Shown here piece by piece: positions 1 through 4,462 of a DNA stretch of 37,309 nucleotides. The stretch lies in contig CAZIDX010000005.1 in assembly GCA_964538435.1 (NCBI GenBank), positions 35,802-73,110 of the forward strand, written 5' to 3'. The position numbers were made by a program, and so were the translations under genes. The notes beneath the pieces are model-generated. The model was not told where the DNA came from, made no database searches, and saw only the letters and a list, made by a program, of their open reading frames with translations. Within the stretch, counting starts at the first letter, position 1, and each line of letters starts with the position of its first letter. Source of the DNA: an uncultured Gammaproteobacteria bacterium. GTDB taxonomy: Bacteria > Patescibacteriota > Patescibacteriia > UBA9934 > GWF2-40-263.

Positions 1-219
1 GAATTGAGAATATTCTCTATTCTGGATTCTTGATTCTCTATTCCATTCCCAGATGGAGTCCCGAGCGCTTTGCCTCGTATGGCATGGTCGGGTCCGTTGT
101 TTTTTGATCTAGGTCGCGAGCGGTGGCTCAAGCCCCGACGTTATCAGTCGGGGCTCCGATTTAACCATTGGCTGGTTGTGTCGGAGCGGTGTCCTTGATC
201 ATGGATGCGTGGGTGCACC

Positions 220-528
220 CTAGATGCGGATCTTGGCCGCGATGAGGTCCTCGAGAATCTCGCGAGAGTGCGAGGTGTGGAAGAACACCTGGCAGGGATC
301 ATCAGCGCCTCGGTACCAGCGGTTCCGGTGCAGACGAAGGCCGATCCACTCGCCACTGTGACGCGTGAAGGTCACGAGCGGGCAGGTGGTGTGGTCTTCC
401 CACTGGAAAGTGTAGCCGTCCGTGGTCAGCGCATCACGCACGGTGACGGGCTGGCTGTCGAGCTCCACGATCTGCTGGGTGCTGTTCTCGAGGTCTACGA
501 TTGCGATGAAAGCATGCTTGCTCATCAT
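220..528 (-). CDS. hypothetical protein (cassette-like ORF 1)
   Basis: Minus-strand ORF, 103 aa. ATGATG start preceded by AAGGAG-type RBS. The 220-aa ORF-track call runs through the palindromic spacer and is trimmed here. High GC. Confidence 0.55.
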   Translation of the reverse strand: MMSKHAFIAIVDLENSTQQIVELDSQPVTVRDALTTDGYTFQWEDHTTCPLVTFTRHSGEWIGLRLHRNRWYRGADDPCQVFFHTSHSREILEDLIAAKIRI

Positions 529-553
529 CACTCCTTTCTGGTGGTGACTTTCC

Positions 554-595
554 ACCGATCCGGAGTCGAGTCTTAACTCGGCTCGGGGTCGGTGG
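554..595. repeat. family-A imperfect palindrome (CACCGATCCG...GGGGTCGGTG), copy 1
   Basis: One of four copies (554, 1026, 1715, 2506). Conserved outer arms, variable but complementary centre, conserved asymmetry in the right arm. Confidence 0.8.
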
Positions 596-676
596 TCCCA
601 AGCTGCGTGCTTGGGCCGCGTTGTATTGCCGCCGGATGACATTCTGGTTGCCCGGCGATGTGTGGAGCTTGGGTGG

Positions 677-985
677 CTAGTAGTCCTTTCCGCTCTTGAT
701 GCGGTCGAGAGCTGCACGTGCCAATCTTCCAATCTCTGCGCTCGATCTCTCGAGGGTCTGCACGTGACTCGGCGAACCTTGGCACACGATCTCCCCTTCG
801 ATCTGGACTGGGAAGATGTGATGCGCGTACTTGGACATAGACCTTCTGGGCGGGCAGGAGGCGGGATCGTAGTCCTCTCCATACTCTGAGATCATGTCCA
901 TGACGTACCCGAGAACATGCAGGTCGTTTTCTTGGCTTCCTGGAAGCCTACACAGCACGCAACACCCTGGTTTGGGATTGCTCAT
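677..985 (-). CDS. hypothetical Cys-rich small protein (cassette-like ORF 2)
   Basis: Minus ORF; GTG/ATG start with AAAGGA RBS. Contains CCVLC...C motifs. Preceded by A copy 1 and B hairpin (625-660, ...TTGGTTGCCCGGCG). Confidence 0.5.
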   Translation of the reverse strand: MSNPKPGCCVLCRLPGSQENDLHVLGYVMDMISEYGEDYDPASCPPRRSMSKYAHHIFPVQIEGEIVCQGSPSHVQTLERSSAEIGRLARAALDRIKSGKDY

Positions 986-1025
986 CACTCGTCCTTTCGC
1001 GCTTTGCGCTCAGGGGGGGTAGAAT

Positions 1026-1065
1026 CACCGATCCGTGCTCGAGCGAACTCGAGTAGGGGTCGGTG
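1026..1065. repeat. family-A imperfect palindrome copy 2
   Basis: CACCGATCCGTGCTCGAGCGAACTCGAGTAGGGGTCGGTG. A B-type hairpin (CGCCGGG...TTGCCCGGCG) follows at 1090-1130. Confidence 0.8.
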
Positions 1066-1146
1066 AGCTCAAGTGACGTCTTGACTTGGGCCGTATTCGC
1101 TTTCGCCGGGTGGCTGTGGTTGCCCGGCGGGTTGGAAAGGGTTGTG

Positions 1147-1635
1147 CTACTCCACGAACGTGTAGGAGTAGAAGTCTGCCACTCTACTGGCATGCTCGTG
1201 CGCGATCCGTCTGTCGTGCATGACCCGGACATGCAGACATGGCTGCCACTGCGCGTTCGTTGCCTTGTTGGTGTAGACCCTCTGCTGCATGACTTCCCTA
1301 CACTTCAGAAAGAAGGGGAAGTGCCGCTTGTACTCGTTCCAGGTGAAGACCACGCACTCCTGGCTCTCAACCCAGAAGCAGGTCGGCCCATCGTGACCCA
1401 GCTTCCACAGAGCACCGGTCGGTGGGGCGCTCTTGATCTCTACGGTCTCGTTGACCTTGTCGATCAGGATGATCCATGCTGGAGCAGTGATCTGCTGCAA
1501 CTCACGCGTGAGCACGCAGCGTTCTATGTCGATCACAGCGATCCTGTGATCGATCCGCCCTTGTTCGCGGATCAGATCGCTCTCTTCTACAACTAACTCT
1601 TCGAGCTCTTTTCTGATTATTTCGGACCTGCTCAT
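1147..1635 (-). CDS. hypothetical protein (cassette-like ORF 3)
   Basis: 162-aa minus ORF. ATG at 1635 with AAAGGA RBS. Antisense ORF 1063..1596 judged a high-GC artefact. Confidence 0.55.
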   Translation of the reverse strand: MSRSEIIRKELEELVVEESDLIREQGRIDHRIAVIDIERCVLTRELQQITAPAWIILIDKVNETVEIKSAPPTGALWKLGHDGPTCFWVESQECVVFTWNEYKRHFPFFLKCREVMQQRVYTNKATNAQWQPCLHVRVMHDRRIAHEHASRVADFYSYTFVE

Positions 1636-1714
1636 GAGCCGATCCTTTCAGCGCCGAAGCGCGCTTGTATCGAACTGTGCAGCGCCCTTGCGAGCTACCG
1701 CCTTGGTGGTGTTC

Positions 1715-1752
1715 CACCGATCCGCACTCGATGACTCGAGTAGGGGTCGGTG
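1715..1752. repeat. family-A imperfect palindrome copy 3
   Basis: CACCGATCCGCACTCGATGACTCGAGTAGGGGTCGGTG, followed by palindromes AGCTCAAGTG.CGTCTC.ACTTGAGCT and CCCACCAGG..CCTGGTGGG. Confidence 0.8.
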
Positions 1753-2556: not shown

Positions 2557-2607
2557 GTGTGTAAAGAACGGAGGGAATAAGTACAGTTGGAGAATCTGAA
2601 CTTATTC
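2557..2607. repeat. family-D hairpin (GTGTAAAGA..GGGAATAAGT...ACTTATTCCC), copy 1
   Basis: Related copy at 4365-4413 with compensatory stem changes (GGGTGGTAAG / CTTCCCACCC). Confidence 0.6.
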
Positions 2608-2736
2608 CCCCTTCTCAACTTGCGAGTTCGCGTCAAACGCGACAGGTGCTCGCAGACTGGGAAGGTTAGGATCTGCTCAACACAGATCCCGTACCGCCGG
2701 ATGTCTTGGTTGCCCGGCGGGGCGTGGTTGAAGGAG

Positions 2737-3180
2737 CTAGTAGGTGCCGCTGACCGGGAAGTCGGCGGTCATCGCGCCAGGGGTGGAGCACTGGATGGAG
2801 TGGCCGCCGCCCATCTCGACGATCTCGCAGTCGAGGTGCTGACCATCGAAGCTGGCGGTGATCTCGTCGAGCGGTGAGCTCGTGCTCGTGATGAACACAG
2901 CCGGCTCTTCGGCGCGTTCGGCCATGCGCTGGTCGTGCTCGGCGATGAACTCGTCGATGGAGTCCTGGTGACGTGTGATGTCGTCGAGCAGGAGCTGCAT
3001 GTCCGGGTCGATGTCAGCGGAGATCACTTCGATGTCGCCGTGAACGAACAGATCCTCGCTGATCAGGGTGTAGCCGGCGCGCTCGAGGCGGGAATTGATC
3101 TCGCTGAGGTTGTACGCACAGACCGCGACAGCGACGAAGACACAGGCGATACCGACAGCGACGAAGAAGTTGCTTCTCAT
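2737..3180 (-). CDS. membrane-anchored hypothetical protein
   Basis: ATG at 3180 preceded by GGAGGT. N-terminal TM helix (FFVAVGIACVFVAVAVCA). A B-type hairpin (2696-2730) lies downstream of the stop. Confidence 0.55.
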   Translation of the reverse strand: MRSNFFVAVGIACVFVAVAVCAYNLSEINSRLERAGYTLISEDLFVHGDIEVISADIDPDMQLLLDDITRHQDSIDEFIAEHDQRMAERAEEPAVFITSTSSPLDEITASFDGQHLDCEIVEMGGGHSIQCSTPGAMTADFPVSGTY

Positions 3181-3234
3181 CTTGATTTCCTTACCTCCCA
3201 TTCCTTGGAAGGTGTTGGAGGGTTTTGGAAAGGC

Positions 3235-3660
3235 CTAGTTGACGTACTCGACCCGCAGGCGGGTCTCGGTGCCGTCATCGGGGTGCTGCAGGACGGTTTC
3301 GACACCGTTGCAGATCCCCAGGGTCCAGGGGCTGCGATGGCTCTCGAAGTTGACCACCGCAGGCACAAACAGCTTCTTGGTGCGGGGATGTCGCTCCCAG
3401 CCGAGATGAAGCTGCGCGCCAACGAATCCGGCGTGCGGATCCACCCAGAACATGTGCGAGCCCTCGAAGCCGGGCACCGGCAGCTTGTTCCAGTTGGTGA
3501 CGTAGAGCTTCATCTCGCTGATGAGCTCTCCCTCGCGGAACCGGCGCACATGGACGACAGCCTTGAGGAACCGTTCGAGCTCACGAGCTTCGACGAGCTT
3601 CTGGCTGGTGGGGTCGAGCCATGCGAGCTCGGTGGGGGTGATCTGGTCTGACCAGGCCAT
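3235..3660 (-). CDS. hypothetical protein (cassette-like ORF 6)
   Basis: 141-aa minus ORF, GGAGAA RBS. Antisense 238-aa plus ORF rejected. Confidence 0.5.
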   Translation of the reverse strand: MAWSDQITPTELAWLDPTSQKLVEARELERFLKAVVHVRRFREGELISEMKLYVTNWNKLPVPGFEGSHMFWVDPHAGFVGAQLHLGWERHPRTKKLFVPAVVNFESHRSPWTLGICNGVETVLQHPDDGTETRLRVEYVN

Positions 3661-3711
3661 GTCTTCTCCGGCTCACAGGCCGAGGTTGGAGGGTTTGGGC
3701 AGCAGAGAACT

Positions 3712-3755
3712 TGTCTCAACTCAGAGCTCGAACTTCTTCGAGAGCTGGGTTGAGA
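3712..3755. repeat. family-C imperfect palindrome (TCTCAACTCAGAGCTC...GAGAGCTGGGTTGAGA), copy 1
   Basis: Second copy at 4311-4360. Same asymmetric mismatch pattern in both copies. Confidence 0.75.
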
Positions 3756-3799
3756 TCCCGGCCGTTGCACGCGTGGTGTGCATTGGCCGGGGCGTCTCG

Positions 3800-4129
3800 C
3801 TAGTTGGTGAAGTGCTTGATGATGTCTTCCTTGCTTCCCACGAAGACCCTTGCCCCCTTGAACACTTGTGAGAACACGAGAGTGCGCAGAGGAATGGTCT
3901 CGTCGTTGGAGTTGGGACCCATTACCTTGAGGTGGTCGCTGTGAATGTGGAACGTGTGCCCGCGGTACCACCCGCAGATATTACTCACGGCAACCACATT
4001 GAACTTTTTCTGCTCAGGCCAGTGGATCAGGACGAAAATCTCGTACTTAAGACCCTTGATTCTGAACTGGGCCTTGTGGTTGGAAATCGCCCTCTCAACA
4101 GCCATCTCGATCTTCTCGCGCTTACGCAT
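3800..4129 (-). CDS. hypothetical protein (cassette-like ORF 7)
   Basis: 109-aa minus ORF. Strong AAGGAG RBS 6 nt from the ATG at 4129. Lower GC than its neighbours. Confidence 0.55.
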   Translation of the reverse strand: MRKREKIEMAVERAISNHKAQFRIKGLKYEIFVLIHWPEQKKFNVVAVSNICGWYRGHTFHIHSDHLKVMGPNSNDETIPLRTLVFSQVFKGARVFVGSKEDIIKHFTN

Positions 4130-4310
4130 GCCAGTCTCCTTGCCGTGATCACGGCGTTTTGATGGAGGAGCTTGCGCAAGAGTTCGTCTGCCACCTATTG
4201 ATGGTCAGCGACTCTCGCAGCGGGATACCTCGAAAGGTACCGCCACGGAGGGGGTGGGTGTTTGATCCTGGTCACTCCTTGCCAGGACACCCGGTTGTTT
4301 GGTGAGTTTT

Positions 4311-4413
4311 CTCTCAACTCAGAGCTCAAGGCGTCTTGAGAGCTGGGTTGAGAGCTTCACTTGGTGTAAAGAGCGAGGGTGGTAAGTCCAATTGGAGGAT
4401 TGAGCTTCCCACC
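4311..4413. repeat. family-C copy 2 plus family-D copy 2 at the right edge of high-GC block 1
   Basis: TCTCAACTCAGAGCTCAAGGCGTCTTGAGAGCTGGGTTGAGA, then GGTGTAAAGAGCGAGGGTGGTAAGT...CTTCCCACCC. GC drops sharply after 4415. Confidence 0.7.
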
Positions 4414-4462
4414 CTTCGGAAAAACACGATTTTCATGTTTTTTCGAAGTTTTATAAAAAAAG

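Follow-up and report, generated by a model that had tools for sequence, protein, structure and literature searches.

Can a row of small genes punctuated by folded repeats be a cassette array without being an integron? This question is raised by a block at positions 60-4415 of a 37,309-nt stretch of contig CAZIDX010000005.1 (GenBank assembly GCA_964538435.1; the whole stretch is referred to here as the window), where seven small genes, g1 to g7, lie co-oriented on the minus strand and adjoin the ribosomal-protein gene rpsP. Among systems that accumulate promoterless genes and reshuffle them at folded single-strand sites, only integrons are, to our knowledge, well understood, and these hardly occur outside Proteobacteria. 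An initial annotation of the window had recognised the seven small co-oriented open reading frames (ORFs), which we confirmed, and had offered two explanations for the hairpins between them, namely integron attC-like recombination sites or a repetitive extragenic palindrome (REP)-like repeat family from a foreign donor. We argue that the block may instead be that part of a hypervariable cassette array in the chromosome which lies next to its promoter, integron-like but not an integron, a reading to which we give an even chance. A conserved strong promoter and a terminator-ended leader lie beside rpsP and face promoterless ORFan genes standing in a row. A unit begins with a Shine-Dalgarno (SD) sequence, has one small ORF or two, and closes, past the stop codon, with a B-type hairpin, an M hairpin and an abutting palindrome. 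The units would be exchanged at the palindromic joints, such that joints and locus persist and the genes between them are replaced.

Same joints and different cargo in a related genome

A pattern scan of metagenome contigs specific for palindrome A, the commoner of the long palindromes in the block, returned one genuine relative, FLOH01000188.1, of which 20.3 kb (assembly GCA_900089805.1), hereafter L146, were compared with the window. L146 and the window are syntenic (TrmD, PNP, a major-vault-protein-like gene, RlmN and RpsP), and divergently from rpsP L146 carries a matching promoter, a leader with the segment UCUCUGGGGAGAGAGUAAGCAAA, a terminator hairpin, a D element and then an array of its own, which spans 11 kb (7841-18849) and holds about 22 small ORFan genes with high GC at third codon positions (GC3). 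The joints of this array include the B, B', M, A and C elements of the window together with the further types B2, E and F. Nucleotide identity between the window and L146 is 74-77% in the housekeeping flanks and 74-90% in the joints, whereas the cargo is without similarity between the arrays except for one family (g1 and the L146 gene f8, 25% amino acid identity). As in integrons, cassette content thus varies at a fixed site, with seven genes in the window and about 22 in L146. The initial annotation had proposed to look in metagenomes for different ORFs between the same repeats, and FLOH01000188.1 is such a case.

The repeats are confined to the two arrays. A covariance model of A found four matches in the window and ten in L146, all of them within the arrays and gene-oriented; the remaining 33 kb of the window and 9 kb of L146 had none. 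Likewise, C, M, B and D were without a copy in the ~42 kb of flanks of both genomes, and no array hairpin motif recurred elsewhere in the 37-kb window. The counts given initially, four copies of A and two of C, were confirmed and were reached in 0/100 shuffles of the window; the excess of B (three copies) is weaker, with 5/100 shuffles reaching the observed count.

Three neighbouring joints of L146 (a, b and c) proved to be mosaics: b equals c in the left flank, a equals b in the centre and a equals c in the right flank, and the switch points sit at the palindrome arms. Furthermore, positions 45-118 of the window, which come after g1 in gene direction, are 84% identical to L146 10345-10419, where the segment follows a different gene and its E palindrome is complete, which places the left edge of the block within a joint. 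The sharp edges in composition that had been noticed do exist, with a block GC of 58-63% (initially put at about 58%) inside a genome of 43-50% GC, but the left one falls inside the E palindrome; since only the left arm of E is present there (~58), the array may run beyond position 1 of the window. The suspected cassette boundaries are therefore borne out by the related genome, in which the same joints at the same site frame unrelated cargo and the modules are reassorted with breakpoints at the palindrome arms. From this we infer that the units were exchanged by recombination at the palindromic joints, a step on which our confidence is again evenly poised.

Some C-type sites of L146 measure 108 nt, their centre being long and branched. 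Unlike the window, L146 also contains a 54-nt element, G, composed of two inverted units of GTAGC plus an 18-nt hairpin. On the published definition of REP doublets forming hairpins, or REPINs (PMC3337134), we call G REPIN-like. Its copies (Table 1) lie within E, C and A palindromes, at the apex.

Searches beyond the two genomes gave nothing comparable. A scan of a genome collection with the outer A arms only returned 120+ single matches in high-GC genomes, at chance level as the pattern was too loose, and none of these had the true A centre or the B motif. Scans of viral contigs for A, C, B, the A+SD module, D and G yielded chance matches only; one (L122) was rejected as a 70% GC coding region, and another, in an unrelated contig (L147), as a single half-unit of G. 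The island had no blastn match among plasmids and phages, nothing in Rfam matched the island or the leader at the gathering threshold or at E<=5, and literature searches on integrons or attC sites in candidate phyla, and on the accession numbers, turned up no description of the system.

Genes, assembly and leader

All seven genes start with ATG behind a GGAG-type SD and end in TAG. Their GC3 is 0.67-0.89 against a mean of ~0.42 for the 32 other window genes, which mostly end in TAA, and from the codon-position GC pattern we take g1 to g7 as real genes; GC3 of ~0.8 is upheld in both arrays despite the age of the locus. A foreign high-GC donor had been considered initially. In such donors TGA is typically the dominant stop codon, whereas the stops of both arrays together (n=29) are 21 TAG, 4 TAA and 4 TGA, and those of the host genes in the window 20 TAA, 7 TAG and 5 TGA. 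The stop usage of the arrays looks like the host's own preference shifted by GC, unlike that of a typical high-GC donor, and the foreign-donor proposal was not upheld, as the cargo stops are TAG and TAA like those of the host, unlike the TGA typical of high-GC donors.

A jump of GC3 from ~0.42 to ~0.8 at both edges, together with short-read contigs that end within repeat A1, could also mean that a high-GC fragment of a contaminant had been mis-joined to a low-GC genome. Logan assemblies of three sequencing runs, which are independent, reproduced the island at 99.9-100% identity, and those of SRR8146440 and SRR8146442 span the right GC boundary to position 4891, also at 99.9-100% identity; the left junction (~58) lies outside the coverage of the independent contigs. 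Because independent assemblies cross the right edge and a second genome has the same arrangement beside rpsP-rlmN, a chimera is excluded at that edge, and an assembly artefact is altogether a highly improbable explanation of the block.

On the gene strand a single site resembles a promoter, namely the leader promoter at 4763-4735. None was seen inside the block, and T-runs on the gene strand are missing from all spacer hairpins, in agreement with the earlier view that these are not plain terminators. The leader, of ~270 nt (window 4455-4763, minus strand; L146 7060-7350), contains UCUCUGGGGAGAGAGUAAGCAAA invariantly, ends directly upstream of the array and could be a small RNA or a riboswitch-like attenuator. 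A motif (C/A)TTTACAC(C/A), which may be a regulator binding site, is found at window positions 4800-4812, 4364-4377 and 2559-2572, that is, ~40 nt before the -35 element of the leader promoter and after both D hairpins, and it is present in both genomes.

Structure of the joints

In gene direction the spacer order is stop codon, B-type hairpin, M hairpin, imperfect palindrome of 38-43 nt (A or C), SD and ATG. The GC-rich B or B' hairpin starts 15-19 nt past the stop codon, the long palindrome directly abuts the M hairpin, and SD and ATG come 24-79 nt after A or C1, the distance from palindrome end to ATG being 24-40 nt in most units. The uniform two-hairpin spacer described initially was thus right as to the repeated modules, but M has to be added as a third hairpin and the g6-g5 spacer (3181-3234) has no hairpin, for which reason g6 and g5 are regarded as a two-gene unit. 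Similarly, of the B hairpin said to follow every stop codon, three copies are present, B' takes its place after g4, and an extra D hairpin, with a ..CTCCAA.. loop and the TCTTTACAC motif behind it, occurs twice (Table 1). Standing at the array head and again between g5 and g4, the D element separates the C-type part of the block from its A-type part.

Table 1. Features of the array and its leader in the window, with the G element of L146
Feature	Position	Strand	Remarks
Terminal joint	45-118	minus	M-like hairpin and E left arm; GC falls sharply 3' of the joint
E palindrome, left arm only	45-58	minus	CTCCATCTGGGAAT
M-like hairpin of terminal joint	58-94	minus	ACG in loop
g1	220-528	minus	102 amino acids; only cargo family common to both arrays
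Palindrome A1	553-594	minus	
M hairpin M1	596-616	minus	loop ACGCA; abuts A1
B hairpin B1	630-657	minus	19 nt past g2 stop
g2	677-985	minus	102 amino acids; ORFan
Palindrome A2	1026-1065	minus	
M hairpin M2	1067-1091	minus	
B hairpin B2	1104-1129	minus	
g3	1147-1635	minus	162 amino acids; ORFan
Palindrome A3	1715-1752	minus	
M hairpin M3	1754-1776	minus	
B' hairpin	1781-1804	minus	CCCACCAGGAATCGGCCTGGTGGG; first hairpin after g4; two near-identical copies in related array
g4	1820-2470	minus	216 amino acids; signal peptide
Palindrome A4	2506-2547	minus	
D hairpin D2	2559-2611	minus	loop ..CTCCAA.. and TCTTTACAC motif; between g5 and g4; heads A-type block
B hairpin B3	2695-2719	minus	identical copy in related array
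g5	2737-3180	minus	147 amino acids; N-terminal membrane anchor
g6	3235-3660	minus	141 amino acids
Palindrome C1	3714-3755	minus	arms TCTCAAC / GTTGAGA
M-like hairpin	3757-3791	minus	abuts C1; 8 nt past g7 stop
g7	3800-4129	minus	109 amino acids; first gene of array
Palindrome C2	4312-4353	minus	head of array
D hairpin D1	4364-4414	minus	with TCGCTCTTTACAC; first array element; kept at head of related array
Leader-closing terminator-like hairpin and U7	4455-4505	minus	90% identical in relative
Sigma-70 promoter	4735-4763	minus	TTGACA-17-(TG)TATTAT; points into array; conserved in relative
REPIN-like G element	L146 10429-10482, 13721-13774, 14259-14312, 18558-18611	two per orientation	

For covariation analysis, twelve short A copies from the two genomes were aligned as an 18-bp helix. 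This helix is 85-88% paired, with compensatory changes at five pairs; its covariation score was reached in 0/500 shuffles, and pairing drops to 17-44% in slid controls. The centres thus vary yet stay complementary, as had been proposed. Folded as single-strand DNA, the six window palindromes gave z-scores of -3.7 to -7.1. The foot of A is kept as 6-7 perfect pairs followed by a fixed non-Watson-Crick position, and C is laid out alike; mismatches are fixed at positions 7 and 10 in A and at 8 and 12-13 in C, the arms being of equal length and without bulges. In 12/12 copies of A, position 7 reads C.A in the gene strand and T.G in the opposite one, and the recurrence of the same mismatches from copy to copy is hence confirmed.

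The window palindromes (n=6) measure 38-42 nt in total with apical loops of ~4 nt, and all short copies of both genomes 38-43 nt with loops of 3-7 nt. With the arms unchanged, the centres range from a 3-nt loop to branched inserts of 55-70 nt, and a variable centre inside constant arms argues for a folded single strand (DNA or RNA) and not for a duplex binding site. The M hairpins, assessed by per-sequence folds, are the mirror image of this pattern, as at least six different stems are combined with loops in nearly all of which ACG(C) is present.

The strand opposite the genes was the more stable one in 17/21 elements with RNA parameters and in 6/6 with DNA parameters. From these energies we at first read a strong selection on the bottom strand, which was downgraded after pair counts pointed to one invariant position; since the asymmetry rests largely on the invariant wobble at position 7, the strand preference is only suggestive. 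The 3' arm of A (GGTGG) can also pair alternatively with CCACC/CACC a few bases downstream, just before the SD (window 529-553 and 1700-1715; L146 10868-10885 and 18636-18651), and this alternative pairing may constitute a two-state RNA switch.

Cargo proteins

The seven window proteins and twelve proteins of L146 gave only a few marginal, sub-threshold matches to Pfam, PHROGs and PADLOC. A homologue search with the g1 protein matched only itself. For g6, no credible homologue besides itself was found among 1.84 billion representative proteins, the residual matches being one long protein without an aligned stretch and two weak ones of repeat type. One marine (TARA) relative, 38% identical, was found for g4. 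This protein models as a signal peptide and an 8-stranded beta-barrel (predicted local distance difference test score, pLDDT, 65), its best matches in the PDB being NspA, OmpA, Ail and OpcA, and the model thus resembles small outer-membrane proteins; such a barrel would imply a diderm envelope or a diderm origin of the gene. The g1 model is a small beta-sandwich, for which a fold search gave generic beta-sandwich matches only. By inspection, about one third of the array proteins of both genomes carry a signal peptide or a membrane anchor.

Comparison with known systems and alternative explanations

Could the block be the remnant of a true integron, that is, a group of clustered attC sites without an integron integrase (CALIN), in which the palindromes are divergent attC sites and IntI is encoded elsewhere in the genome? 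Integrons and CALINs share with the array the co-oriented, promoterless and mostly ORFan genes behind one strong promoter, the unit that ends in an imperfect palindrome with conserved foot and free centre, and the cargo that differs among relatives at a fixed locus. The arms of C hold the AAC...GTT triplet of attC, C1 and C2 being the only elements with complementary NNNNAAC/GTTNNNN arms in intergenic DNA; the 108-nt C-type sites of L146 add to this, and CALINs without a nearby intI are common (PMC4889954). The canonical attC motifs are nevertheless as absent as the initial annotation had stated, apart from this triplet of C: strict RYYYAAC/GTTRRRY pairs number zero on either strand, the feet of A (four of the six window palindromes) are CACCGAC/ATCGGTG, with GAC/ATC rather than AAC/GTT, and E lacks AAC/GTT too. 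The extrahelical bases and the unpaired central spacer of attC are missing, the fixed mismatches in symmetric arms being an analogous feature only. The variable terminal structure of attC comprises 20-100 nt (PMC4889954), far from the short loops of the window palindromes, although some L146 copies have centres of 55-70 nt. The B, M and D hairpins are without an attC counterpart, and the head of the array is a complete palindrome and not an attI site. No integrase was found in the window by Pfam scans, as had been reported, and IntI was missing from both the 37-kb window and the 20-kb L146. The host falls outside the proteobacteria, and integrons are reportedly absent from very small genomes and 93% of them lie in Gammaproteobacteria (PMC4889954, PMC9024848). 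Membership of the palindromes in the attC family is therefore not supported, and a CALIN is in our view improbable.

Selfish REPs and bacterial interspersed mosaic elements (BIMEs), mobilised by a REP-associated tyrosine transposase (RAYT), might on the other hand have piled up in a dispensable, horizontally acquired island with ordinary gene flux. The palindromes of the array are indeed imperfect, extragenic and 38-43 nt long, their modules form BIME-like mosaic combinations, and the REPIN-like doublet of L146 sits in the apices of A, C and E in both orientations. REPs, however, are dispersed genome-wide in both orientations, have a 5' GTAG and are accompanied by RAYT (PMC3337134, PMC3116915). 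By covariance-model and motif scans over ~57 kb of the two genomes, copies of our elements occur only inside the arrays, where A, C, M and B stand singly, co-oriented (14/14 A copies in one orientation), without GTAG and at fixed positions relative to stop codon and SD; a 5' GTAG and inverted doublets are found in the G element alone, and neither the window nor L146 showed a RAYT. Locus, promoter, head elements and joints are moreover conserved between genomes with ~76% identical housekeeping genes, across ~24% sequence divergence. A REP-like family from a foreign donor is not supported by these observations, and we hold the REP explanation to be rather unlikely.

Intergenic stem-loop modules are also known from T4-type phages, in which Promoter early Stem-Loop (PeSL) elements, each a sigma-70 promoter with a terminator stem-loop in a phage genome, flank ORFans in hyperplastic regions, and recombination between them shuffles, deletes and inserts genes (PMC2839356, PMC4122927). 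Judged by analogy, PeSLs are the closest functional counterpart besides integrons, as in both cases conserved intergenic stem-loop modules flank ORFan genes; the array differs in that its spacers lack a promoter consensus and a T-run, its modules contain several hairpins and its location is chromosomal. The mosaic joints of L146 and the turnover of its cargo are consistent with module-driven exchange of this type.

The RNase III hairpins of phage T7 are 40-60 nt long, have internal mismatches and recur between the cistrons of one long transcript. The intercistronic hairpins of the array are similar, and one may ask whether they merely punctuate the RNA of a fast-evolving operon, as processing, stability or translation signals, with no special recombination of DNA. 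The conserved promoter and leader before the array, the orientation of all hairpins with the genes, the regular distance of B from the stop codon and, in most units, of the palindrome end from ATG, and the fusion of the 3' arm of A to an SD segment with its alternative pairing downstream all agree with this, as does the M loop conserved on covarying stems, which is typical of protein-bound RNA hairpins. Yet position 7 is a C.A mismatch in the mRNA sense, and the mRNA-sense fold is the weaker one in the same 17/21 elements. T7 hairpins act in RNA only and in a fixed gene order, whereas the array shows turnover of cargo, the same joints on unrelated genes and mosaic breakpoints at the arms; as an RNA-only reading leaves these unexplained, some recombination at the joints would still be needed. 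We consider it unlikely that RNA-level punctuation is the whole explanation, and in the mRNA the hairpins probably serve in addition as signals between cistrons, for stabilisation or processing.

Several observations weigh against a cassette array with recombining joints, the reading that we prefer. No recombinase was found among the larger ORFs of the 37-kb window by Pfam scans, and no recombinase family among the called genes of the 20-kb L146. That outer arms of several families (A, C, E and F) coexist in one array sits uneasily with one sequence-specific enzyme. Many copies of A have a 3' arm that continues into the conserved SD segment GGTGGAAAcaCCAGAAAGGAG, and this would equally fit a role at the RNA level. 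Pairing amounts to 87.5% and 85.2% on the two strands, with G.T pairs on both, so the strand preference is weak. The Logan contigs of the three runs have the same gene order, and no cassette polymorphism was seen among them within the population. Within the collections searched the system was found in two genomes only, and the turnover of cargo hence rests on one comparison, between genomes with ~76% identical housekeeping sequences.

If units are nevertheless exchanged at the joints, the cassette-array reading leaves two routes. A recombinase encoded in trans could act on hairpins that extrude from DNA in single-stranded form, where the strand opposite the genes has the better fold; or DNA, once taken up, could recombine homologously between the conserved joints, as with the PeSLs of T4-type phages. 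The window encodes a type IV pilus and secretion ATPase set. More tentatively, and with some doubt on our part, the array could be an independently evolved capture-and-shuffle system of an uncultured bacterial lineage with small genomes, with composite folded joints (the M hairpin with its ACG(C) loop and a palindrome of conserved foot and several arm types), an enzyme other than IntI encoded elsewhere (e.g. an HUH or another single-strand DNA recombinase) and a leader-gated promoter.

Other features of the window

An S-adenosylmethionine (SAM) riboswitch (6753-6856) lies ~100 nt upstream of a 626-amino-acid ORF (6959-8839) with Vault repeats, a major vault protein shoulder and a Band 7 domain, an odd pairing for a bacterium; the major-vault-protein-like gene is conserved in the related genome, where it is likewise rich in GC. 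Three isolated ORFs of high GC3 (0.67-0.78) stand in low-GC surroundings, at 10261-10854, 19995-20603 and 32803-33447 (minus strand). The ORF at 10261-10854 has a sub-threshold DUF7506 match only and the other two are without a Pfam family; one of the three is lipoprotein-like, and none carries array hairpin motifs. The 16S rRNA gene (17098-18594) has no 23S gene after it; at the EUB338 site it shows the type II (Planctomycetes-like) variant, and at the 515F site a mismatch. The product encoded at 20774-21298 combines a winged helix with a Cas2-like PaaX_M domain; no CRISPR array was seen in the window. Cumulative GC skew peaks, and gene orientation converges, at ~20000-24000, a region that may be the replication terminus; if so, transcription of the array genes would meet replication head-on, and the palindrome strand that folds better would be the lagging-strand template.

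Biological significance

If the joints are recombination sites, the cassette strategy would have evolved more than once. The array would explain how a streamlined, uncultured lineage keeps accessory genes, including those for secreted and membrane proteins, and its joints would offer a defined DNA substrate for finding the enzyme responsible. Even if the hairpins act in RNA only, the locus would still be a clean natural case in which conserved regulatory modules drive a modular exchange of genes outside phages.

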